From positions 1 to 60,397 of IMG/VR virus record IMGVR_UViG_3300038560_000015: a stretch of 60,397 bases of DNA; one strand, 5' to 3'. The notes under the pieces are model-generated. The model was not told the origin of the DNA, ran no database searches, and saw nothing but the letters and a program-made list of their open reading frames with translations. Each line of letters opens with the position of its first letter. Position 1 is the stretch's first letter. The position numbers were made by a program, and so were the translations under genes. Positions 5,179 to 59,596 of this stretch are shown here, one piece after another. Source of the stretch: a virus (Duplodnaviria > Caudoviricetes).

Positions 5179-5447
5179 AATTGTCTGTTCTGTTGCGTTT
5201 GCGTCAGCAAATAATCCAGTCGGCAGGATGCCGGCGCAGCAATGAGATCAGCGTGGAGTTACAGTTCCATATCAGAGAGATTTGCCCGGTGTGCCATAAG
5301 CCAAGCGTGCGGCTGGCGACCATCGAGCCACACCCGACGCGGGATGACATCGCGCTGCATAACTTCAATTGCCTCGACTGCGGGCCCGTTAGGACGAGGG
5401 AACTCTCGTTGCGACCGAGGGCCGCGGTAATGGAGAGCGCCGCTTGA
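5175..5447 (+). CDS. Zinc-ribbon hypothetical protein (start may be GTG near 5253)
   Basis: CPVC...CLDCG. Confidence 0.55.
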   Translation: MKLSVLLRLRQQIIQSAGCRRSNEISVELQFHIREICPVCHKPSVRLATIEPHPTRDDIALHNFNCLDCGPVRTRELSLRPRAAVMESAA

Positions 5448-5647
5448 GCGAGCCTGCGCAAATTTACGCACCCGATCGCGACGTTCTTGATCGTCTCGGC
5501 GAAGCGCTGCGGCGCTATCGGCACGGGCTGATGCGGCCGTTGTGGGCGGACATGACCGAAGCCGATCGGGAAGGCTGGCGCAATCTCGCCGCGACCTTCG
5601 TCATGGACTTGAAGAACGTCGGCATTCGCATCGAGGTCGAGCGGTGA
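5444..5647 (+). CDS. Hypothetical protein
   Basis: Overlaps both neighbours by 4 nt. Confidence 0.55.
   Translation: MSEPAQIYAPDRDVLDRLGEALRRYRHGLMRPLWADMTEADREGWRNLAATFVMDLKNVGIRIEVER
5455..5470. repeat. Dispersed 16-bp palindrome, copy with one mismatch
   Basis: TGCGCAAATTTACGCA versus consensus TGCGCAAATTTGCGCA. Confidence 0.7.
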
Positions 5648-6048
5648 CCGTCGCCGTCTATACCATTGCCGAGGCGGCTGCGGTGCTCCGCAAAACCCCT
5701 CGATGGCTTGTCAACTGGCTGCGGGATAACCCGGTCGACGCGACCGGAACGCCGTTCTACACTCCGGCCGGCCGCACCAAGACATTCGACGATAGCGAGC
5801 TGTTCCGGATCCGTGTGGCGATGCGTGAGGCAGAGCAATGCCGCTTAAGATCATCACGTCCCGCAACAAGAAAACGAAAAACCTCTATATCCGCGGCTCG
5901 TACCTCGGAGTCCGAGTGGACCAAAGCTGCAAGACTGGCAAACGATCCGTCGCTGGCGGAATTCTCAAGCGGCTCGAAGCCAGCATCGAAAGAGGCGAGT
6001 ACCCACCGCGTGAAGCTGGAACTCGTAGCGACGAACCGACATTCTTGA
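5644..6048 (+). CDS. Excisionase-like HTH protein overlapping the int start
   Basis: YTIAEAAAVLRKTPRWL...KTFDDSEL; immediately upstream of int. Confidence 0.65.
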   Translation: MTVAVYTIAEAAAVLRKTPRWLVNWLRDNPVDATGTPFYTPAGRTKTFDDSELFRIRVAMREAEQCRLRSSRPATRKRKTSISAARTSESEWTKAARLANDPSLAEFSSGSKPASKEASTHRVKLELVATNRHS

Positions 6049-6881
6049 CCGCGGCAAACGCCTACATGGAAGCCGGAAGGCCGGCGCGCTACGTCGCGCC
6101 GCTGATCAAACATTTTGGCGAGACGCCAATCGCCGCGATCGATCAGGCCGCGATCGATGCCGCAGCCGTCGCCTTAGTGCCGAACGGCACGCCGATGAAC
6201 CGGACGCGGCTGGTCTACACGCCCGTCTCGGCGATCATGCACCACGCCGGCGACAAGCGGCCGATCAAGCGGCCGAAGGGTTTCCAGGGCCGCACGATCA
6301 CCGACTGGATCGTGCCGGAGGACGCGTTCGGCATCATAGCCGGCGCCGACACGTTCGATCCCGAATTCGGCACGCTCCTGTGCTTCCTACTCTACACTGG
6401 GCCGCGGATCAGCGCCGCGCTCAGCCAGCAGCGCGAGGATTTCAGGCTCGATGACGGCCGTGCGTGGGCGCGCAACCAAAAGGGCCAGCCGCACATGGAC
6501 ATCCGCTTACGCGCCGACCTCTGTGATCGCTTTAGAGCGCTGCTGGCGAGCCATGACCGCCATCGCGTGTTTCGGTGGCACTACGGCGCGCACCTCGCCC
6601 ACTTGCTCACGCGCGCCAAGCTGGCCTATCTGGGCATTGAGTGTCCCGTGCGCCGGCCGATCGGATGGCGGCAGCCGCCCAACCGTCTTAAGTGGGTGAC
6701 TTTCCACATCTGGCGCCATACTTGGGCGACTTGGATGCGGCATACAGGTGTTGACGTGAAGGGTCTCGTCGCCACCGGAAACTGGCGCTCGGAGAAAGCG
6801 GCATCACGCTACGCCCATGCCGTGGCGCGCCAGGAGTGGGATCACGTCGAGAAGCTGCCGGGGATGAAGGTGAAGGCATGA
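5838..6881 (+). CDS. int: Tyrosine integrase
   Basis: Catalytic set: GPRISAAL (R), KG, HIWRHTWATW (HxxR), GNW, RYAH (Y). Confidence 0.92.
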   Translation: MPLKIITSRNKKTKNLYIRGSYLGVRVDQSCKTGKRSVAGGILKRLEASIERGEYPPREAGTRSDEPTFLTAANAYMEAGRPARYVAPLIKHFGETPIAAIDQAAIDAAAVALVPNGTPMNRTRLVYTPVSAIMHHAGDKRPIKRPKGFQGRTITDWIVPEDAFGIIAGADTFDPEFGTLLCFLLYTGPRISAALSQQREDFRLDDGRAWARNQKGQPHMDIRLRADLCDRFRALLASHDRHRVFRWHYGAHLAHLLTRAKLAYLGIECPVRRPIGWRQPPNRLKWVTFHIWRHTWATWMRHTGVDVKGLVATGNWRSEKAASRYAHAVARQEWDHVEKLPGMKVKA

Positions 6882-7160
6882 GCGATCTGCTGAACGGGGA
6901 TTTTCTCGGGCCGGTCATCGACCGCCTTTGGCCGCGCACCTTTGGCCTCTCGCCTTGGCGAAAACGTATCGCTGTTGCGCTGCTTGATCCGATTGAGCTG
7001 CAGGCTTCTGCGGAGGCCTTGATTAGTTTTTGCCGCGCTATTGGACCATTGATGGGTCCGATGGGGAAACATAGGGGAATTGAATGATGCCGTCCGCCAG
7101 CTCAATTGCCGTGGCGCGCCAGGAGTGGGACAACGTCGAGAAGCTGCCGGGGATGAAGGT
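6818..7160 (+). repeat. 54-bp direct repeat of the int 3' end (6818-6871 and 7107-7160)
   Basis: 52 of 54 bases identical. Confidence 0.92.
6878..7087 (+). CDS. Hypothetical 69-aa cassette protein
   Basis: ATG overlaps the int stop; ends GKHRGIE. Confidence 0.55.
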   Translation: MSDLLNGDFLGPVIDRLWPRTFGLSPWRKRIAVALLDPIELQASAEALISFCRAIGPLMGPMGKHRGIE

Positions 7161-7264
7161 CGCGAAATGATTGAGACGTCAGAGATCGAAAACGCCGCCG
7201 CCGTTCTCGCCTTTTCCCGGTTCAAAATCCCGATCGACGAAGCGCGAAAGCTTGTATCTGAAAT

Positions 7265-8113
7265 CATGCTTATCCGGTTGACGCATACAGGTCGAAAATG
7301 ACACCACATCTAGTGTTCCCTTCATGGTCTACCTGTAGAGTTGAGCGCGAGTTCCAGCGTCTCGACCGGCCGGGCGCGCGCGGGCCGGTCAACGAAAAGG
7401 TCGGGGCGCGCCAGCGCGTCACTGATGCGTCGGCGCGCCAAATCGAACCACTTTTGGTCGATCTCAATTCCAGTGAACCGGCGGCCCGCCTGAACGGCGG
7501 CAACCCCGGTCGTGCCCGAACCACAGAACGGGTCGAGGATGGTTTCACCGGGTTCCGAAAACGCCGCGACCCACTGGCCTACCAAGCCGAGCGGCTTTTG
7601 CGTGGGGTGTTCGCCCTGTTCGATAGGGCAATGCCAAACGGCATGGTGACCGCCGTTATTCCATCGCTTTTTGCCCTCGCGATGCAAAATAGCGATGGCT
7701 TCCCAGCCTGTTCCGGGGCGATCCACAGTAAACTGCGGCGCGCCGTTCGGCTTAATCCACACGCCAAGGCGCACCAGGGGCACGCCAGCGGCCTCAAGGC
7801 TCGCGGCGTGCCGCCACTCGCACGTCATGACGACCCAGCGATTGGCGGCCTCTACAAAGGCACGGCAGAGCCCCGCCAAATCTTCGCTTGTGATGCTCGG
7901 AAAGTCGATTGTCGTCCGGTCGAGCGAGTTTGCGGAGCGCGCGCCAGCATGAGTCACGTCGCCATAAGGCGGGTCCGTCATGATGACATCCGCGCGCGGG
8001 AGCGTAGGCAGAATCTCGCGGCAATCCCCCATATATATAGTGATGCCTTCCGCCAAAGTTTCCGTGCGCGTCGTCAACATCTAGTACCTGTATGCGTCAA
8101 CCGGATAAGCATG
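7265..8113. mobile_element. Non-autonomous insertion cassette (probably IS1595-family-derived) carrying a DNA methyltransferase
   Basis: Perfect 28-bp TIRs CATGCTTATCCGGTTGACGCATACAGGT (7265-7292, 8086-8113); 8-bp TSD TCTGAAAT (7257-7264, 8114-8121); no transposase; family assignment is inference. Confidence 0.9.
7322..8080 (-). CDS. N6A/N4C DNA methyltransferase, beta class
   Basis: GDC, TDPPY, HPTQKP, ILDPFCGSGTT, GIEID. Confidence 0.93.
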   Translation of the reverse strand: MLTTRTETLAEGITIYMGDCREILPTLPRADVIMTDPPYGDVTHAGARSANSLDRTTIDFPSITSEDLAGLCRAFVEAANRWVVMTCEWRHAASLEAAGVPLVRLGVWIKPNGAPQFTVDRPGTGWEAIAILHREGKKRWNNGGHHAVWHCPIEQGEHPTQKPLGLVGQWVAAFSEPGETILDPFCGSGTTGVAAVQAGRRFTGIEIDQKWFDLARRRISDALARPDLFVDRPARARPVETLELALNSTGRP

Positions 8114-8204
8114 TCTGAAATGATCAACATCGTCGACACGATGCGCGGCTACGCTCGCCAGAATCGCGATATCAATGGCGTCCCGCTGTGATGAAGGTGA
8201 GGGC

Positions 8205-8414
8205 ATGAGCAACCAAGCTTTAGCTGCGAGCTTTGAGACCGGCAACCATGATCAGATAGCGCGGTGGAACCATCAGCTTTATATCGGCGAGCCAGCCATC
8301 ATCATCCTCGATGGAAAGCAGATGCGAATAACCGACCTCACTGAGACGCCGGATGGCCGATGGGAAGTGACGTGCGTCGAGTGGTTGCCGGGGAAATATA
8401 GGGGAATTGAATGA
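8205..8414 (+). CDS. Hypothetical 69-aa cassette protein
   Basis: Same leader and terminal sequence as 6878-7087; ends GKYRGIE. Confidence 0.55.
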   Translation: MSNQALAASFETGNHDQIARWNHQLYIGEPAIIILDGKQMRITDLTETPDGRWEVTCVEWLPGKYRGIE

Positions 8415-8592
8415 CGACGCCGGCTAACCCATTGAACAAAAACACGTCGGCGACTTCTATCCGAAGATTACGCCGCAGTTCGGCGAATGCTCGAAACCCG
8501 CGCGAATACGGCACTTCTGATGTCCGCTCACGACGCAAACTGACGGAACGAAGCGCGAAACTCCCCCAATCGCACGGGGAATATACGGGGAC
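8390..8592. other. Probable attP region
   Basis: Downstream of int, bracketed by tandem GGGGA arm-like repeats (8390-8406, 8576-8592); core not identified. Confidence 0.45.
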
Positions 8593-8635
8593 TTCGGACC
8601 CGTTACGTTCCGGCGTGCCTCGAACGGAGAACAAA

Positions 8636-8821
8636 ATGGGTTACTTCATTGTCAGTCGAAATCCGCACGACAATAAGCCGCTCGTCGCCACAGACGAGCA
8701 TGGAGAGATTGCCGAATTCGATACGGAGCAGGCGGCGACAAATGCCGCCAAAGAAATCATGATGTGCAAATGGGGCTTTGAGATCGTCGAAGTACCAGCG
8801 CAATGCTCTCGCACGCCTTAA
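8636..8821 (+). CDS. Hypothetical protein
   Basis: GGAG RBS before MGYFIVSRN. Confidence 0.6.
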   Translation: MGYFIVSRNPHDNKPLVATDEHGEIAEFDTEQAATNAAKEIMMCKWGFEIVEVPAQCSRTP

Positions 8822-8836
8822 CAACAGAAAGAGCTA

Positions 8837-8959
8837 ATGAAAATGAAACTGCGCTGCATCGTCTGCAAGCACACCGAGACGCGCGAAGCGCCGACCGAGC
8901 AGCCTATGTGCCCAAAATGCTACGGGATGATGATATGCGAAAAAGTCTCCTCTCGCTGA
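8837..8959 (+). CDS. 40-aa zinc-ribbon protein
   Basis: MKMKLRCIVC...MCPKCYG; below the ORF-track cut-off. Confidence 0.55.
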   Translation: MKMKLRCIVCKHTETREAPTEQPMCPKCYGMMICEKVSSR

Positions 8960-9183
8960 TCCGTCCGGCCTGCCCATATTGCGACGGCGCTGGCGGCTTC
9001 ATGGATGGCTACTACGAGCCGGAATGGTCGGGCTGTCGGTGTTGCGATCCGAACGAGGAACGAATGGATGAGCCAGTCACGCGGGTATGGCGCTGGCATT
9101 GGTGGGCGTTTCGGTTCGGGGAATGGCGGGAGAACCGCCGTCTCGATAAGTGGATTGACCAGCAACCGGAAGTGCGGCCTTAA
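8935..9183 (+). CDS. Cys/Trp-rich hypothetical protein
   Basis: CPYCDGAGG...CRCC. Confidence 0.55.
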   Translation: MRKSLLSLIRPACPYCDGAGGFMDGYYEPEWSGCRCCDPNEERMDEPVTRVWRWHWWAFRFGEWRENRRLDKWIDQQPEVRP

Positions 9184-51152: not shown

Positions 51153-52181
51153 CTAATTCGAGGGGGGGGGTGCGTTGGCTTCGTCGAACTTGGCGAGGTC
51201 GAAGAGTGCCGGCTCCATCGGCGTTTCTTCCGGCACATAGCGGGCTTTAAGATTGAGAACTGCCTGGCGGAAGTACGATGGCTTTAATTCAGCGCCGACC
51301 GCGCGGCGTCCCATCTGCACGGCGGTGACCAATTCGGAGCCGATGCCGGCGAATGGCGAAAACACCACGTCATGCTCGTTGCTCCAAAGGTCGACGCAGC
51401 GGCGGATGACGGTCAGTTGCAGGGGTGAGATATGGCGCTCGTCTTTTTCATCGCGAACACCATCGCGCGACAGGACGTCACTCGGCGCAATGTCGCTCCA
51501 CACCGGCTCGGCGTAGCGCTGCCAGACGGCGATGCTGTAGCGCTCGTCCCCCGGCCACAGCGTCTGCCGTCCGTGCATTCGCGATTCCTGCACGATCGGC
51601 CCGTGCGGCGTCGTTTCCGTGCCGAAGTAGCAGTCCATGATGCCGCTGATTGGCTCAGGATTTTCGCCGGGCTTGCGCATTGTGACGATGTAATCGGCCA
51701 CAGCCATGCGGGAGAGTGCTGAATCCTTGGCAAGCTGTTTATGCAGAAGCCCAATGTGTTTGGTGCGCTGCATCGCCTGCACCGGGTCTTTTCGGATGCA
51801 AACTTCCGAGTGGTAGATAAAACCGGCGCCAACATGTGCCCGGATGATCTCGCCGCGGAAATCGCGCAAGCCGATATAGCCATCGCGCGTCTTGCTTGTA
51901 GGCAGTTGCATGCAGTGGATCGATATGAGCCGGCCGGGCTTTGTGATCCGAAAGCATTCCTCGATCAGAAACTCATAATGCGCCCAAAACTCAGCGAACG
52001 ATGTGCAATTCGAGATGTCGCGAAGATCGTCAGAGAAGGTAAACAAGCCCGGGAATGGCGGGCTATAGATCGTATAGTGCACGGACGCATCGGGAAGTCC
52101 GCGCGCAACCTCTACGCAATCGCCGTTCCAGATCGCCCAGTCGTCGCCGATAACCTGATCGGCCACTGTCACGTCAGCCAT
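51153..52181 (-). CDS. Amino (probably N4C) DNA methyltransferase
   Basis: GDC; SPPF; HISPLQL; SPFAGIGSE; ELKPSY. Confidence 0.9.
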   Translation of the reverse strand: MADVTVADQVIGDDWAIWNGDCVEVARGLPDASVHYTIYSPPFPGLFTFSDDLRDISNCTSFAEFWAHYEFLIEECFRITKPGRLISIHCMQLPTSKTRDGYIGLRDFRGEIIRAHVGAGFIYHSEVCIRKDPVQAMQRTKHIGLLHKQLAKDSALSRMAVADYIVTMRKPGENPEPISGIMDCYFGTETTPHGPIVQESRMHGRQTLWPGDERYSIAVWQRYAEPVWSDIAPSDVLSRDGVRDEKDERHISPLQLTVIRRCVDLWSNEHDVVFSPFAGIGSELVTAVQMGRRAVGAELKPSYFRQAVLNLKARYVPEETPMEPALFDLAKFDEANAPPPSN

Positions 52182-54619
52182 TGCGGCACCTGCATAGGCT
52201 TGTCGTGGATTGAGATCGTGCGCTGCGGTCGCAAATTGACGGCCGTCAAATCGCGCATGTGCTCGGCCATCGATGCCGCCATGTAGTCGGCAGCCTCTTC
52301 CTTGGCTTCGAGATTAGCGACGACCGCGCCTTCCACGTCGGCGGCGACGAGATGAACATTGACCGCCCTGGTTTGACCGAAGCGCCAGCAGCGGCGGATC
52401 GCTTGATAAAGCTGCTCAAAGCTGTCGTTAAGCCCGACGAACACCATGTCGGCACAGCGCTGAAAGTTCATGCCCCAGCCGGCAATGCTCGGCTTGCTGA
52501 TCAGTATTTGATGTTCACCTCTCGCAAAGCCTAGAAGGCGCGCGGCCTTCACATCCGGATCGTCGCTGCCGCGAACCTCGATCGCGCCTGGGATCGCCTG
52601 CGTGAGCGCGGAGGATTCATCGTTGAGATTGCACCAGACGAGCCATTGTCGGTCACGCGCGCTGTTGACTATCGCCGCAGCGGCGGCCACGCGCTCAGTC
52701 AAGGTATTGCGTCGGGCGGCAAGTCGCTCTTGAAGGGTCCGTGCCAGTTGAGGTTCAAGCAACCCCTCGCTGCCCTTGGTCTTGATCGTGACCGGGAATT
52801 TGTTAAGCGCGGGCAGATCATAACCCGCCTCTTCGTAACCGAGATCGCGCGGATGGCGGATCAGGACCGACCATGACGCCAGCCAGCGCCAAAAATCATC
52901 CTCGGCATGCCCCTTAAGGCGCCAGTCGCTGCCCTGCCGAAGGCCATGGTTCTCGATATTTGTGGCGCGGCTCGATCCGTCATGGACGAACCAAGTAGCG
53001 AGCATTTCCTTGTGCTGCAAAATGCCGAGAAATTCGGCATGGTTGCCGAGTTCGACGTAATCGTTAGGTGCCGGCGTTGCCGTGCAGCACAGCCGATATT
53101 GTGTCTCTGCGAATGTCTCGATCAGAGATTGGCGCGTCTTGCCGTCAAACGCTTTGAGGATGCTCGATTCATCAAGCACGATGCCTGCAAATTTAGAGGC
53201 ATCGAATTTTTCCAGCCGCTCGTAGTTCGTCACAACGATGCTGCTGGCAGCCTCGGCTTGGCTTCGCGCGTAGGCGACAGACGCTATTGAAAATCTCTCC
53301 GCCTCCGCGACCGTCTGTTGGGCAACGGCAAGCGGCGTCAGGATCAGAACAGGTCCAGCAAACCGGCTCACAATCTGATCGGCCCACGATAGCTGCTGTA
53401 TCGTCTTTCCGAGACCGGTGCCGGCGAATATTGCCGCCCTGCCGCGCTTAAGCGCCCAGCGCACGATATCGCGCTGGAACGGCTTTAGCGCGGGATTGAG
53501 AGCGTCGCCCGTTATATCGAAGCCGTTCGCAATCGGCAGGCGAATCTTGCTTTCGAGAAAGTGCCGGTACTCGCCATTGCGTTTGTGGCCTATAGCGGGC
53601 GCGTCATCCTCATCCTTCCAAGCCAATTTCTCGGCCAGCTTGAGCATCCAATCCGGATCATCGGGAAGCGAGCCGGCAAGCGCTGGATTCGCGACAGCGC
53701 CTGCCGTCTCTGGCGCTACGGATTGGGCTGGCGGGCTCGCCTCCGTAGCGATCGGTTCGTCCCCGCGAGCTTCTGCCCGCTCCTCACGCGGCGCAGCTTC
53801 CGCTTGTGTTTGCAGCGCAGGCTCTTGGTGGACATGGTCGTCTCCTTTATCGAACTTCTGCCAATGCGCCTCGATCGCGGCGTCCATTTCGTGATGCTGC
53901 GATGGCCGATAGGCAAACGATGCGCCGCAGTCGCAGGCGCCGATGCTCATCGGCTTGTCGGGATCGGAATAATCGATGGTGTGGTGAACGACGTGGCCGG
54001 CTGGATAGACCTTGCGGGCTTTGTTTTGGGCGACGAGTTCGGCGACGACCGGATCGGTTATATGCGCCGGCGGCCCGGCGCTTTCTTTTTCAGCGTCGCT
54101 CGCTTCGCTTTGCGCGCTGTGTGCGGGCCGAGGATGTCGCGCTCTTTCAAGATGTTCTTCATCCTGAGAACGTTCCTGCTGGCACGAATCGGCTTGTGTT
54201 TCGGCTTGCGGCTCATCGGCACTCTCCGACTTTATCCTAGCGACGGACGGCTTGAGCGACAACGCCCATTCGATCATCCGGCCCGCGGCGCCGGCGTCCC
54301 AATGGATGCCCTGGTCGGCAGACTGTCGCGCAAAGCGCCGGAAATCCTTGATCTTGCGCGCGATCGAGCAGCGCAGCGCCGCTTCTCTTGTCGGGAATTG
54401 CGGATTGTCGATCGAGAAGCCGTTATGGCGCACAAGCCATTGGCCGTTATCGAGAGGCAGTACGCCGATGATCGCGACCGCCGAGCGATGCTGCGGATTG
54501 TCGGGCTCGAATATCTCGCCCTGATCGTCGCGGAAGAAACGGCCCATGCCGGCTTGCGGCGGCTCGCCGGTGGCCGTCTGCAGAAGCGGAGCGATCAGGT
54601 TGGGGTCGTGGGCGTTCAT
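52169..54619 (-). CDS. SNF2-like helicase with long N-terminal extension
   Basis: GTGLGKT; DESS; TATPAPND; QAIRRCWRFGQ. Confidence 0.9.
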   Translation of the reverse strand: MNAHDPNLIAPLLQTATGEPPQAGMGRFFRDDQGEIFEPDNPQHRSAVAIIGVLPLDNGQWLVRHNGFSIDNPQFPTREAALRCSIARKIKDFRRFARQSADQGIHWDAGAAGRMIEWALSLKPSVARIKSESADEPQAETQADSCQQERSQDEEHLERARHPRPAHSAQSEASDAEKESAGPPAHITDPVVAELVAQNKARKVYPAGHVVHHTIDYSDPDKPMSIGACDCGASFAYRPSQHHEMDAAIEAHWQKFDKGDDHVHQEPALQTQAEAAPREERAEARGDEPIATEASPPAQSVAPETAGAVANPALAGSLPDDPDWMLKLAEKLAWKDEDDAPAIGHKRNGEYRHFLESKIRLPIANGFDITGDALNPALKPFQRDIVRWALKRGRAAIFAGTGLGKTIQQLSWADQIVSRFAGPVLILTPLAVAQQTVAEAERFSIASVAYARSQAEAASSIVVTNYERLEKFDASKFAGIVLDESSILKAFDGKTRQSLIETFAETQYRLCCTATPAPNDYVELGNHAEFLGILQHKEMLATWFVHDGSSRATNIENHGLRQGSDWRLKGHAEDDFWRWLASWSVLIRHPRDLGYEEAGYDLPALNKFPVTIKTKGSEGLLEPQLARTLQERLAARRNTLTERVAAAAAIVNSARDRQWLVWCNLNDESSALTQAIPGAIEVRGSDDPDVKAARLLGFARGEHQILISKPSIAGWGMNFQRCADMVFVGLNDSFEQLYQAIRRCWRFGQTRAVNVHLVAADVEGAVVANLEAKEEAADYMAASMAEHMRDLTAVNLRPQRTISIHDKPMQVPQWLT

Positions 54620-56673
54620 TCCGCAGCCTCGCGCGCGAATTCCGGAACGCCGTTATCGTTGACTTCAAGCGGAGCGAAGTTCGCCTCGACCAGCGCCCGC
54701 GACATGGGCGGGCAGACGCTGTTGCCGCATTTCGAGACCTGATCGGTTTTGCTGATCGGCCGCTCGATCAGCTTGCCGACGTGACCGGCACTGATCTCGA
54801 TATGCTGGCCGCGATTGATGATATAGCTGTCGGGAAATCCTTGCGCGCGGAACAGTTCGCGCGGCGTCAGCATCCGCATGCCGATGTCGGCGATGACGTA
54901 AGTCTCGCCTTTGATCTCGACCGTCACGGCCGCGTAGCGGTCCTTGCAATCGATCGTGTGCAGAGGATCATCAGCCGCCTGGTGCTGCCCGCCGGAGCCG
55001 TGCGCTTTCGTCAGGAACGCGCTGACGGCCGCCTGGTGACCGCCTTGCGCACTGACGGTCGCCGCCGGACTTTCGACAGGACGCGGCATGAGCTGATCGT
55101 CGGCCGTGCCGCGCATGTTCATAAGGCCGGCCGAGACGACGGCCTGATGCGATCCGCTCTGCAGAATCGTTGACGCCGGCTCGCGCGCATCGCGGCCGGG
55201 ATTTTGCACGCCGCCGCGGCTGACGTTGTGCTGGGCGAGGAACGCCGCGACCAGACCGAAGCGGTTATATTGCGACGTCGCCGTATGCAGCGGCTCGGCG
55301 GCGCCGGATGCCGGCTTGTCGCCGAAATTATTCTTGGTGACGTGTGCGGCGATGACGGCGTGCCGAGGATCGCCGGTCACCGTGCGGATCGGCTCTTCGG
55401 CGCTCGCCGAGCGGTCCTTGCCTCCGGCGCCATCGCCAAAGAATGCAGAGAGGTGTGCGGTCACCACATTCAAATGCGCGCCGCCGGCAGTGACGACGTG
55501 TGTCGGCTGGTCCGCGCCGTTGAACGGCTTTTGCGCGTTGCGGTTCGTGTTCAGGTGTGCTGCGACCAGGCCATGCTTGACGCCGCCGGCGACGACAGTG
55601 CCGAGGGGCTTGTCGAGACCGGGGACGCGAGGATCCTGTCCGTCCCGCTCGCCGTAGCCAGTTTGAATGAGCGTCGGCGCGATAATGGCGTTGGCGTCTT
55701 TGCGCGATGCCGTGACGGTGTGCAGCGGCTCCTCCGCTGATCGTACCGCGCCTCCTTGCTGCGCGTAGGTCACGACTGGCGAGACGATAGCTTTTTCGCC
55801 GCGATGCGCGCCGGTTACCGTCATGAACGGCTCGGTTACCGCCTCACCTCGTTCGCCGCCCTGATGCGTCAACGAGACGATGAACGGCTCTTTGGCGTCG
55901 ATCACATAGCGCTTCACGCCCTTGGCGATGCGCGCCATCGTGGCCGGCGCCAGCGGGCGCTTGATGCCGAAGGGTTTGGCTTCCTCTTTCGTCAGGAAGA
56001 TCGAATAGCACGGGAGCGACCAATCGATGACCTCGGCGGCCGTGCGCCAGGGCAGAAGCTTGCCGGATTTCACGGCATCGGCTTTCGGATCGCCGTGCGT
56101 CGGCACCGGCCAGATGATCGGCAGGCCGTCGCGGCGGGCGATCAGGAACAGCCGCTTGCGGATGGTCGGCGCGCCGTAGTCGCAGGCGCGCAGCTCGCGC
56201 CATTCGACCTTGTAGCCGAGCTTATTAAGCTCGCCGATGAAGCGGTTGAATTCCTCGCCCTTGCGCAGCTTGCACGGACGGTTGTCGTCGCCGAGCGGCC
56301 CCCAGGTTTTGAACTCTTCGACGTTTTCCATCATGATGACGCGGGGCGCGACCTGGCGCGCCCACTTCACGATCACCCAGGCGAGGTCGCGGATTTTCTT
56401 CTCGACCGGCTTGCCGCCCTTGGCCTTACTGAAATGTTTGCAATCCGGACTGGCCCACAATAGCCCGACCGGGCGGCCCTGGCAGACGGCGGACGGATCG
56501 ACCTTCCAGATATCGTGCGGGATGTGCATCGTCGCCGGATGATTGATCCGGTGCATCGCCATGGCGGTCGCGTCGTGGTTGATCGCGATGTCGGGAGAAA
56601 TCCCGAGCGCCATTTCGATGCCGGTCGAAGCACCCCCGCCGCCGGCAAAGCTATCGACGATCAATTCCCGCAC
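54616..56673 (-). CDS. C5-cytosine DNA methyltransferase with repeated variable region
   Basis: FAGGGG; SPDC; ENV; R.RLF; RMLTPRELFRAQGF; GNSV. Confidence 0.93.
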   Translation of the reverse strand: MRELIVDSFAGGGGASTGIEMALGISPDIAINHDATAMAMHRINHPATMHIPHDIWKVDPSAVCQGRPVGLLWASPDCKHFSKAKGGKPVEKKIRDLAWVIVKWARQVAPRVIMMENVEEFKTWGPLGDDNRPCKLRKGEEFNRFIGELNKLGYKVEWRELRACDYGAPTIRKRLFLIARRDGLPIIWPVPTHGDPKADAVKSGKLLPWRTAAEVIDWSLPCYSIFLTKEEAKPFGIKRPLAPATMARIAKGVKRYVIDAKEPFIVSLTHQGGERGEAVTEPFMTVTGAHRGEKAIVSPVVTYAQQGGAVRSAEEPLHTVTASRKDANAIIAPTLIQTGYGERDGQDPRVPGLDKPLGTVVAGGVKHGLVAAHLNTNRNAQKPFNGADQPTHVVTAGGAHLNVVTAHLSAFFGDGAGGKDRSASAEEPIRTVTGDPRHAVIAAHVTKNNFGDKPASGAAEPLHTATSQYNRFGLVAAFLAQHNVSRGGVQNPGRDAREPASTILQSGSHQAVVSAGLMNMRGTADDQLMPRPVESPAATVSAQGGHQAAVSAFLTKAHGSGGQHQAADDPLHTIDCKDRYAAVTVEIKGETYVIADIGMRMLTPRELFRAQGFPDSYIINRGQHIEISAGHVGKLIERPISKTDQVSKCGNSVCPPMSRALVEANFAPLEVNDNGVPEFAREAAE

Positions 56674-57959: not shown

Positions 57960-58319
57960 TCACCATTGCTTGCCGTTGGCGCGCAATCGCGCTTCGGCTT
58001 TGTGGTCCGCCCGCTGTTTGTTGTAAGCCCGTTTCTCAGCGACGGCCGCGTCCAGGTCGTAACCGAAGGCGCCGCAGTAATCGAAAATTCTGATTAGAAC
58101 GTCGGCGAATTCCACTTCCGCCATCCGCCGATGCGGCAGATGGTCGTCCATTAAATTCTTGCGCTCGCCTTCCATGGCCTCCGACAGTTCGGAGTGCATG
58201 AGGCAGATCATCTCGCCCTTGTTGCGATTGAGACGCTCGCCGGTCGCGGGATTGCGCCACCAATGCTCGTTCTCAGTATGACATTCGCGCGCGAGATCGT
58301 TGAGCGGAGTATTGCTCAT
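57960..58319 (-). CDS. MazG-like nucleotide pyrophosphohydrolase
   Basis: LMHSELSEAMEGERK; EVEFADVLIRIFD; EKRAYN..RADH. Confidence 0.8.
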   Translation of the reverse strand: MSNTPLNDLARECHTENEHWWRNPATGERLNRNKGEMICLMHSELSEAMEGERKNLMDDHLPHRRMAEVEFADVLIRIFDYCGAFGYDLDAAVAEKRAYNKQRADHKAEARLRANGKQW

Positions 58320-59596
58320 TCTGCCGCTTCCGCAGGTAAGAGGGATTGCTGTTGCGGGACGTTGGCTTCGTTGCCCCAGCCGAACCACGTTTCCGGAAGC
58401 GCACCGTTGATGCGCGGGAACAGCTCGACCTTCGGCAGATCGGGGTAGTAAGCGGTGATCAGATCGCGGAAATATTTCGGCTTGGCCGAATGCTTGCCGC
58501 GCGCCTCGCGATAGAGCGACGGCCGCAACAGCGACGGCTCCGGCGCCGGCATCTTGCCGCGCGTCGCGATCAGCAAACACTCATGCGCGCTGCGGTTCCA
58601 GAAGCCCATGCCGAGCGCGGCCTTGTCCCAGGCGAACTCGGAGACGTATTCAAAACCCCAGCCCTCGATCAGCCGCATGGTTTTGCGGAGCCACGGCACG
58701 GTCGACCAGATGAAGAGAACCGCGTCAGACGTCGCCAGCGCGCCGATCGGCAGCTTGGCGATCTCTTCCTCGGTCATGGTCGGATAGTGGTTTTCGGTCG
58801 AGCGGTCGCTGTCGCCGGCGGCGAATTTTGTCGGCGGATCCATGTAAAGGACCGGGAATTTACGCTCGGTCGGCAGTTCGCTGTTGCCGACGGAGATCGC
58901 CGCAAGCTTGCCGATGCGTTCGCCGCGGCGCTTTTCGTTTTGCTCCTTGCGGATTTTCTTGGCCGCTTCGAGGATCTCTTTTTCCGAGAGCTTGGCGACT
59001 TCGCGCTGTTGCTCTTGCGGCAGGCTGGCGAGATCGGCTGCCGTCGAGACTGCAACGCGCCCTTCGTCGACGGCTTGCTGCAGCTCTGGCGCGCCCTTTT
59101 CCTGCACCGCTGCCGCGCTTTGCAGGCTGCGCCGACTGACATTGAGCAGCTCGGCCGCCTCGCCTTGCGCCACGATCGGCACCGGCTCGGAGGCCTCGAC
59201 GCCGGGCAGCGTGGGTGCGCAAATTTGCGCAGCCTCGCGGGTGTGCTGGTTGGAGCCGACCTTGAACTTGGCGAGCCGCGCCGCCACCATGGCGCGCTGG
59301 CTTTCGTCCATGTGCCGGCGCTTGAGATTCTTCGAGACGACGTAATTGAGCGCAGCGCGATCGTCGCCGACGAAAAGCTCGGTGCGCACCGGAAGTGTTT
59401 TAAGCGCGCACGCCCGATAGCGGTTGCGGCCATCCAGGATCATTCCGCGATGCAGCTTGACCGTCTCTGCCTGGCCGTTGGCGGCAATGTCGTCGGCGAG
59501 CTCGGCAAGCTCGGACGCCGGCAACGGCGGGAATAAGTTCGCCATCGGATGGTCTTTAAGCGGCGCATGGCCGGGCATGAGGGTCGAGCCGGTCAT
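58316..59596 (-). CDS. ParB-like domain, HTH and MT-A70 methyltransferase fusion
   Basis: HP.ANLFP; ILDGRNRYRAC; N..RRH..ESQRA; QGEAAELLNVSRRS; DPPT; WGFEY; HS.KP; VELF. Confidence 0.88.
   Translation of the reverse strand: MTGSTLMPGHAPLKDHPMANLFPPLPASELAELADDIAANGQAETVKLHRGMILDGRNRYRACALKTLPVRTELFVGDDRAALNYVVSKNLKRRHMDESQRAMVAARLAKFKVGSNQHTREAAQICAPTLPGVEASEPVPIVAQGEAAELLNVSRRSLQSAAAVQEKGAPELQQAVDEGRVAVSTAADLASLPQEQQREVAKLSEKEILEAAKKIRKEQNEKRRGERIGKLAAISVGNSELPTERKFPVLYMDPPTKFAAGDSDRSTENHYPTMTEEEIAKLPIGALATSDAVLFIWSTVPWLRKTMRLIEGWGFEYVSEFAWDKAALGMGFWNRSAHECLLIATRGKMPAPEPSLLRPSLYREARGKHSAKPKYFRDLITAYYPDLPKVELFPRINGALPETWFGWGNEANVPQQQSLLPAEAAE
59215..59237. repeat. Dispersed palindrome copy inside the ParB-fusion gene
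   Basis: GTGCGCAAATTTGCGCAGCCTCG. Confidence 0.9.

Follow-up and report, generated by a model that had tools for sequence, protein, structure and literature searches.

What holds small genes of unlike content between the same two short ends, directly behind the integrase gene of a phage? The question is raised by IMG/VR virus record IMGVR_UViG_3300038560_000015 (Duplodnaviria; Caudoviricetes), which was analysed over its whole linear length of 60,397 base pairs (bp), hereafter the window (CheckV completeness 100%). The window encodes terminase, portal, protease-like protein, tape measure and tail protein; the terminase, portal, tape measure and tail protein genes identify a tailed phage and the integrase gene (int) a temperate one, and the region considered here is the end of this temperate tailed soil phage where int adjoins the phage attachment site (attP). 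Two units of 225 bp with shared ends lie there, and the first-pass annotation, made from the sequence alone, took them to mark a slot in which small genes are swapped or stacked by recombination at short conserved ends. The explanation that we find best overall, and hold with fairly good confidence, is that the slot lies between the body of the integrase and a tail that overlaps predicted integrase-binding sites, that its cargo is foreign, that the stack would descend from two parental phages, and that a cassette of the insertion sequence (IS) family IS1595 would have entered it later.

Repeats and the two 225-bp units

Three repeat pairs were recovered where the first-pass annotation had placed them, all beyond chance. 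The 3′ end of int recurs in 52 of 54 positions (repeat D1, 6818-6871 versus 7107-7160), a 5′ motif in 20 of 21 (6863-6883 versus 8190-8210), and a 3′ motif in 24 of 25 (repeat D3, 7063-7087 versus 8390-8414), the latter extending to 42 nucleotides (nt) at 81% identity (34/42). Each end motif has exactly two matches in the window when up to 3 mismatches are allowed, versus none in 100 shuffled sequences. The two units between these ends, each with an open reading frame (ORF) of 69 amino acids (aa; c1, 6878-7087; c2, 8205-8414), are likewise as annotated, and their middles are indeed unlike, BLASTP finding similarity between c1 and c2 only in the last 7 residues (GKHRGIE versus GKYRGIE). In addition, the last 20 nt ahead of the repeats that close the second unit (repeat D4, 8375-8394) are a 17/20 copy of the integrase end.

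The 3′ shared end and the attachment site

Relatives of the integrase were collected from viral contigs (2 and later 26 loci), from species-representative genomes (55, mostly of Hyphomicrobiales, e.g. Xanthobacteraceae, Bradyrhizobium and Rhodopseudomonas) and from metagenome contigs (the best 80 of 324), and include integrases 82% (locus L097) and 67% (L005) identical to that of the window. The last 71 aa of the window integrase were compared by tblastn with 162 sequences, namely the window and 161 loci; 4 gave no match, 6 ran off their contig and 15 were duplicates, leaving 137 distinct sequences, of which the 130 aligned to the final LP residues form the basis of the counts of repeat pairs. 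The pairs were detected with a loose regular expression (NGGA repeated at 11 bp), so the counts are approximate. A pair lies inside the integrase tail or within 10 nt of it in 80/130 sequences and further downstream in 22/130, while none was detected in 28/130. The closest cargo-free relatives end in ...LPSMGKRRGLA (L235) or ...LPSMGKIRGVTR (L172, L173), each followed by the stop, which matches the C-termini of c1 and c2; therefore, the 3′ end shared by the units is the old integrase tail. This end is at the same time the predicted first pair of arm-type integrase (Int) repeats of attP, and in this integrase family such a pair (GGGGA at an 11-bp period) normally falls within the last integrase codons.

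In a lambda-type attP, as used by heterobivalent tyrosine integrases, a core is accompanied by arm-type Int sites on a P and a P′ arm. The window resembles this design in that int adjoins attP, in that a short core is common with the junction of prophage and host, and in that its arms carry short motifs at fixed spacing whose type co-varies with the integrase lineage. In 15 loci the first pair is followed, after 175-209 bp, by another of its own type; 10 of them have a distance of 185-187 bp (186 bp in the window). A pair of a different type stands at that position in 4 loci, and no pair occurs there in 61, as expected for integrated copies or diverged sites. Lineages of the GGGGA type and of the TGGA type carry their own repeat type on both sides. 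The spacing of 185-187 bp, found in the window (8390/8576), L085, L102, L175, L183, L216, L220, L229, L233 and L235, holds across integrases just 50-80% identical, a near-invariance that suggests a rigid geometry of attP.

An alignment of ten loci displayed the same order of P pair, CTTCTATCCGAAG, box ACGGAACGAAGCGCGAAA and P′ pair in the window, L099, L235, L175 and L183. The sequence CTTCTATCCGAAG itself, about 65 bp behind the P pair, is present in the window and in L099, and the prophage relatives L097 and L173 diverge right after it into one shared host gene whose first 33 codons correspond to positions 1-31 of Pfam DUF72 (4.6e-8). The probable attP of the window is thus located at 8390-8591 with its core at 8454-8466, consistent with the first-pass annotation, which had correctly put an attP arm to the right of the second unit. 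The stretch 8411-8636 is non-coding attP DNA as read here, its guanine-plus-cytosine (GC) content by codon position (0.51/0.61/0.59) not being coding-like.

This family differs from the lambda type in that its first arm pair normally lies within the integrase coding sequence, the tail of the protein and the putative binding site being one piece of DNA. An overlap of another sort is reportedly known in myxophage Mx8, whose attP is said to lie inside the intP gene with the core within the gene, so that integration changes the integrase. The integrase coding sequence of the window family also overlaps attP, unlike Mx8 only at the arm repeats, the core being downstream.

The integrase tail GGGGATGAAGGTGAAGG was also considered as a decayed arm pair 186 bp from the next one and was rejected, the spacing being 200-202 bp and the sequences unlike. 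The exact 3′ motif has no match in the viral contigs.

The 5′ shared end as a coupling junction

The 5′ shared end is composed of the integrase stop, a Shine-Dalgarno box and an overlapping start codon (ATGA). L097 carries the identical junction ahead of a different gene. The 19-mer of this junction gave 5 matching stretches in the viral contigs; one is the L097 contig, two come from the same phage, and three of the lineages are unrelated to the window, with about one chance hit expected by a rough estimate, so that the excess is small. In the three unrelated lineages the 19-mer sits between an ORF ending in ...MKVKA and the ATG of the next ORF, a location at genuine gene boundaries that suggests a junction favoured for coupling. 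These occurrences of ATGAAGGTGAAGGCATGAG (L123:2235-2253; L124:3001-3019, also in L126; L125:3001-3019), all in lower-GC phages, may represent such a favoured junction or a small exchanged module. As for the copy at 8190, it may be a relic from a time when c2 stood directly behind an integrase, or be partly convergent.

With both ends so identified, as integrase tail with arm sites on one side and as coupling junction on the other, the first-pass proposal that they serve as recombination sites is not sustained: the 3′ end is a predicted arm-type pair, which in most relatives consists of the integrase's own last codons, and the 5′ end is a site of translational coupling. Function thus explains why both are conserved; for recombination they simply provide homology.

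Contents of the slot in integrase relatives

Slot cargo was defined as ORFs whose start lies at -1 to +13 relative to the integrase stop and the last of which reads through the repeat pair. By this definition it occurs in at least seven integrase lineages, including the window, with different ORFs and varying lengths; weaker cases (L090, L237, L108, L183) were left out of the count. From integrase stop to repeat pair, the distance is 185 bp in the first unit of the window (c1, 69 aa), 188 bp in L099 (73 aa), 195 bp in L100 (66 aa), 210 bp in L166 (76 aa), 262 bp in L116 (116 aa), 421 bp in L097 (ORFs of 90 aa and 61 aa, the former looking DUF551-like by eye) and 484 bp in L185 (three ORFs). 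The tabulated integrase homologues hence bear out a slot between int and attP with variable small genes, this tabulation being the test that the first-pass annotation had set. The same distances speak against its suggestion that the equal length of the two units reflects a constraint; since slot length varies among relatives, the equal 225 bp looks like chance. That four of the distances fall close to 186-210 bp may or may not be meaningful.

In an excerpt of the Kapi1 report (PMC8787464), hyp25 is described as a small gene between int and attP, and the window has in common with accessory genes beside attP that its small genes occupy this place and vary among relatives. The ORFs of the window differ from such genes in two respects: their start is coupled to the integrase stop, and the last of them runs through the arm repeats. 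The reading that we favour for this minority of lineages is that foreign small ORFs would have been wedged between the integrase body and the arm pair. The integrase would then end early (...LPGM-KVKA), with the first cargo ORF starting on its stop (ATGA), and the last cargo ORF would read through the repeat pair and so inherit the old integrase tail (...GK[H/Y]RGIE). The distinctive feature appears to be that the integrase reading frame includes the arm repeats and that the cargo is wedged between integrase body and old tail, so that it is coupled by translation at one end and fixed by a putative binding site at the other. Searches of the literature on int-attP regions, on arm-type sites, and on IS1595 passengers and phage methyltransferases (the last by titles and abstracts) brought up no paper on such an arrangement, which is weak evidence of its being unpublished.

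The small ORFs

The coding character of the small ORFs is suggested by their GC content by codon position, which is coding-like in c1 (0.61/0.49/0.57), in c2 (0.54/0.43/0.63) and in both halves of a further ORF, c3, lying between them. No homologues of c1 or c2 were found in the viral contigs, and each matched only itself in a collection of 5.8 billion proteins; c3 as it stands (44 aa) had no match among 1.84 billion representatives. In a protein atlas the best score of c2 was 0.88, to unnamed clusters, and c1 had no usable match (predicted local distance difference test, pLDDT, of 0.51 for the stored model), while Pfam and PHROGs gave no match for any of the small ORFs. Classical morons are autonomous inserts with their own promoter and terminator. 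The window ORFs are unlike them, since no promoter-like site was found in 5400-9000 (sigma-70-type consensus scan), terminator-like sites in the same interval are at chance level (3 versus 3.6 expected), and the starts overlap the upstream stops. The expression and function of c1 to c3 are putative.

The features of the region are collected in Table 1.

Table 1. Coordinates of the features at the int-attP end of the window, in order of position.
Feature	Position	Strand	Evidence
Tyrosine integrase gene, 347 aa, tail ...VEKLPGMKVKA-stop	5838-6881	+	Pfam Phage_integrase 5.9e-11; PHROG 1 integrase 3.4e-18
Integrase 3′ end, copy 1 of 54-nt repeat	6818-6871	+	Repeat D1
5′ junction motif, copy 1: Shine-Dalgarno-like AAGGTGA, integrase stop TGA overlapping c1 ATG, then AGC	6863-6883	+	Repeats
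c1, 69-aa ORF, start coupled to integrase stop, end ...PMGKHRGIE-stop (arm-repeat-encoded peptide)	6878-7087	+	ORF list; GC by codon position
Putative orphan attP P-arm copy, pair GGGGAAACATAGGGGA (7063-7078) and about 25 nt of spacer as after the working pair, no core	7063-7108	+	Repeat D3 (42 nt, 81%)
28-aa fusion ORF, 7 codons like the sequence after the second unit and the last 20 integrase codons (...NVEKLPGMKVAK-stop)	7084-7170	+	Three-way comparison
Integrase 3′ end, copy 2 (52/54)	7107-7160	+	Repeat D1
c3, 5′ part; as it stands the ORF enters the cassette end, stop at 7301 (44 aa)	7167-7264	+	ORF list
Target-site duplication TCTGAAAT, left copy	7257-7264		8-bp direct repeat
Predicted transposase-less IS1595-type cassette, 849 bp	7265-8113		Perfect 28-bp terminal inverted repeats, 7265-7292 and 8086-8113
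Cassette cargo, 252-aa N6/N4 DNA methyltransferase	7322-8080	-	Pfam N6_N4_Mtase 3.1e-21; PHROG 67 3.2e-50
Target-site duplication TCTGAAAT, right copy	8114-8121		8-bp direct repeat
c3, 3′ part, in frame with the 5′ part after cassette removal	8122-8191	+	Restored ORF of 55 aa
5′ junction motif, copy 2 (20/21): c3 stop, Shine-Dalgarno box, c2 start	8190-8210	+	Repeats
c2, 69-aa ORF, end ...VEWLPGKYRGIE-stop	8205-8414	+	ORF list; repeat D4; GC by codon position
Putative working attP P arm, arm-type pair, GGGGA at 11-bp period	8390-8405	+	Comparison with relatives
Probable attP core CTTCTATCCGAAG	8454-8466	+	L097 and L173 pass into DUF72 host gene right behind it
Conserved P′-arm box ACGGAACGAAGCGCGAAA	8543-8560	+	Alignment of window, L099, L235, L175, L183
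Putative P′-arm pair of arm-type repeats, 186 bp after P pair	8576-8591	+	Repeat comparison

Origin of the stack

The sequence that joins the two units was then resolved into its sources. Positions 7084-7108 are a copy of the stretch that follows the working P pair (8411-8435), with agreement at about 15 of 21 positions, and from 7107 onwards the sequence is that of the integrase 3′ end. The joint accordingly falls at about 7100-7110, the two source sequences reading CCCATTG and CCCATG at the switch. The stacking joint thus lies outside the shared ends, at this microhomology, and not within them as a crossover at the ends of the units would require. Nor does the second copy of the integrase end provide an alternative integrase C-terminus, as had been proposed; it forms the 3′ portion of a 28-aa fusion ORF that opens with a 7-codon copy of the sequence after the second unit. 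This ORF keeps the ATGA coupling to c3 and is read as a recombination scar. The third small gene annotated at 7167-7301 holds insofar as an ORF is present there, which is only the 5′ part of a 55-aa ORF interrupted at 7265-8113 by the cassette.

These features would be explained by a two-parent history. The functionally fixed ends would be the only homology common to related phages around variable cargo, allowing its exchange by ordinary recombination, and the stack would have arisen by one illegitimate microhomology joint between two related genomes. The left parent would have contributed int, c1 and P arm, cut 7 codons past the arm repeats, and the right parent int′, c3, c2, P arm and core, joined from the last 20 integrase codons onwards. 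An orphan arm pair and the fusion ORF would have been left as scars. Such a joint could have formed as a deletion in a tandem double lysogen or as a crossover of co-replicating phages later resolved elsewhere.

An artificial joint, made by an assembler that placed a variant with c1 and one with c3 and c2 in tandem, would be compatible with the record being metagenomic and with the whole stretch being present in one sample only, its probable source. Nonetheless, the repeat copies are not identical (52/54, 24/25 and 34/42), so the order cannot result from an assembler collapsing identical repeats, and the joint at 7100-7110 lies in sequence absent from both putative parent copies, so no shared k-mer path explains it either. 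Contigs of a second assembler (Logan) give the same order, a contig of 10,073 bp at depth 12.7 covering 6600-8700 with 0 differences; coming from the same sample it is not independent, and the check works at contig level only. We regard a chimera as highly improbable.

Duplication within one genome offers another route, by unequal crossover either of the P and P′ pairs, which have the same orientation and stand 186 bp apart, or of the tail copies, with the units as decayed duplicates or as ORFs born in place. Three integrase-tail pieces and two P-arm copies do lie in direct order in the window, the single-ORF spans of 185, 188, 195 and 210 bp are near the 186-bp spacing of P and P′, and c1, c2 and c3 lack homologues in the searched collections. 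A repeat search, insensitive below about 65% identity, gave no match of the c1 or c2 bodies to the integrase 3′ region or the attP core, and their GC content (0.53-0.56, versus 0.63 for int) equals that of the early genes to the right. Moreover, the cargo of relatives includes the apparently DUF551-like ORF and spans of up to 484 bp, and c1 and c2 are unlike throughout, so that one duplication cannot yield both. This origin is therefore considered unlikely.

A dedicated cassette system, in which the phage integrase or some other recombinase would insert and excise units site-specifically at the conserved ends, was also weighed. Integron gene cassettes, the obvious model, have attC hairpins, an attI site and an IntI-type integrase. 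Like them, the window stacks small promoter-less ORFs with shared ends beside an integrase gene, here in two units of equal length, and the 3′ end holds likely Int-binding repeats. The ends are, however, direct repeats with no hairpin or attC-like inverted repeat, nothing being found at 7040-7110 or 8370-8430 beyond weak pairs of 14-15 nt at chance level (I20, I25). The window has no attI and encodes an ordinary phage Int with its own attP; core-like TTCTAYCC stands at no boundary of a unit, the only occurrence after int being at attP. The stacking joint is outside the shared ends, cargo length and number vary freely among relatives, the supposed 3′ end is the integrase's own tail in 80/130 relatives, and neither further joints nor circular forms were seen among the contigs. 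Such a system is hardly credible for this locus, and the small-gene region is mosaicism at constrained flanks.

Several observations weigh against the two-parent slot that we favour. No parent-like phage, whether int-c1-attP or int-c3-c2-attP with intact c3, was found in the searched collections. Int binding to the arm repeats is predicted only from their position, conservation and co-variation, and the loose detector found no pair in 28 of the 130 relatives, and the 22 downstream cases may include P′ pairs or noise. Lacking homologues in the searched collections, c1, c2 and c3 may not be working genes, their coding support being solely a Shine-Dalgarno box, an overlapping start and the GC content by codon position. 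The 20/21 junction copy at 8190 does not adjoin an integrase and is accounted for only as relic or convergence, and the equal length of the two units stays unexplained beyond chance.

The IS1595-type cassette and its methyltransferase

The interruption of c3 is itself a mobile element. Removal of the 849-bp cassette with one 8-bp copy restores 168 nt with no internal stops and hence the 55-aa ORF. The terminal 20-mer of the cassette has 22 exact-match stretches in the viral contigs, where conservation of the end breaks off sharply at an outer C(A/G)TGC; a script recovered 20 inverted pairs in 18 loci with 8-bp duplications (up to 1 mismatch), representing 15 distinct elements of 235-1,968 bp. 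The 1,968-bp element has the first 15-16 nt of the cassette end (CATGCTTATCCGGTT[G]) in identical form at its own ends; it is carried by the prophage L005 and encodes a 349-aa transposase (L005:2547-3596; DDE_Tnp_IS1595, PF12762, 6.9e-34; zinc ribbon, PF12760, 3.1e-11). No IS1595-type transposase was found in the window, and the cassette must be moved by a transposase made elsewhere.

The IS1595 family reportedly includes, according to Siguier, Gagnevin and Chandler in 2009, forms with passenger genes ('transporter IS') and transposase-less forms (mobile insertion cassettes and miniature inverted-repeat transposable elements, MITEs). The cassette shares with that family its terminal inverted repeats, the 8-bp target duplication, the passenger gene and the occurrence at many sites, as well as longer elements that have its ends and code for DDE_Tnp_IS1595; on every feature tested it fits a transposase-less IS1595 derivative with a passenger gene. 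It differs in that its end family came from phage contigs and was not found in the searched host chromosomes: of 401 genomes sampled from the order holding the hosts of related prophages, only 3 had a single end each, versus 1 hit of a control pattern.

Contigs from three other studies carry 7264/5-8113 at more than 99% identity (6, 3 and 2 differences), with flanks that differ exactly at the ends. Duplications are seen in the other flanks of X2 (GAACCATT) and X3 (AATCGTAA); X5 reveals the methylase cassette with its right flank alone and also contains a second family member of about 437 bp with duplication GAATGAAC, and in L024 this cassette end borders on still other sequence. Near-identical copies at different sites argue for recent movement, and in the history proposed here the cassette with its methyltransferase would have transposed into c3 after the stack had formed, duplicating 8 bp.

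The cargo is a beta-class N6/N4 methyltransferase, with CcrM (1.6e-17) and DpnA (3.5e-16) as nearest solved relatives in the PDB and 2,181 relatives at E<=1e-30. Including the window, four ORF-bearing copies carry apparent methyltransferases of different kinds, assigned by Pfam in the window and by eye in L022, L023 and L032, where motifs DPPY (L023) and NPPY (L032) were read; further copies of the family contain small ORFs of no assigned function or no ORF. Plausibly, the cargo methylase would protect phage DNA from restriction.

Further details of this element family were noted. The complete phage genome G005 (117,459 bp, the contig of L037) has 26 such ends, 12 forward and 14 reverse (control pattern, 0); most of its elements are about 235 bp without ORF, and one 2.2-kb copy, with ends at 8172 and 10421, encodes the transposase. 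The inverted end (7265-7292 in the window; also L022 and L032) offers a start codon inward (C-ATG-CTT...) and a stop outward (...ACC GGA TAA); the cargo ORFs of both L022 and L032 terminate in ...ASTG, which the end encodes, and the ORF hit by the cassette stops soon after entering it. In L166, about 35 nt past the P pair (pair start 4755) and within attP, there is a 12/15 match to the cassette end (TATGCTTATCCGGAT), which could be a solo end or fortuitous; that contig also carries two full IS1595-type elements.

Other genes of the window

The Pfam match of the integrase covers the catalytic domain only (residues 179-328). An excisionase-like helix-turn-helix ORF lies upstream of int (5644-6048; weak HTH_17 match, 0.0071); it continues without a stop over the first 210 nt of the integrase gene, in a different frame, and where it really ends is ambiguous. 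PHROGs assign three more DNA methyltransferase genes, on the minus strand at 51153-52181, 54616-56673 and 58316-59596, one of which also matches a ParB-like PHROG family, bringing the phage to four with the cassette cargo. No transfer RNA genes were found in the window.

Implications for the phage family

The reading of these units as mystery cassettes is replaced by an anatomy that can be tested, consisting of an integrase tail, predicted binding sites and a translational coupling junction. For a large, uncharacterised family of integrases from Hyphomicrobiales-type phages it supplies a concrete model of attP, in which a P pair is followed by a core located in a DUF72 gene, by the box and, at 186 bp, by the P′ pair; it also shows how functionally fixed flanks can create a hot spot of gene exchange. 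A well-documented and apparently recently mobile example is added to the accumulating record of IS1595-type cassettes that take DNA methyltransferases from phage to phage, which bears on how protection from restriction may be gained.

More tentatively, and with real doubt, the overlap of integrase tail and arm site may act in several independent lineages as a built-in landing pad and expression slot, whose start-coupled genes, which have no known relatives, are swapped and stacked with no dedicated recombinase; the constancy that integrase function imposes on both flanks would be what lets relatives exchange and stack slot genes in this way. If true, the small slot genes would be made only when the integrase is made, each array would end in a peptide encoded by the arm repeats, and the slot would represent a recombinase-free counterpart of the integron, possibly a cradle for new genes.

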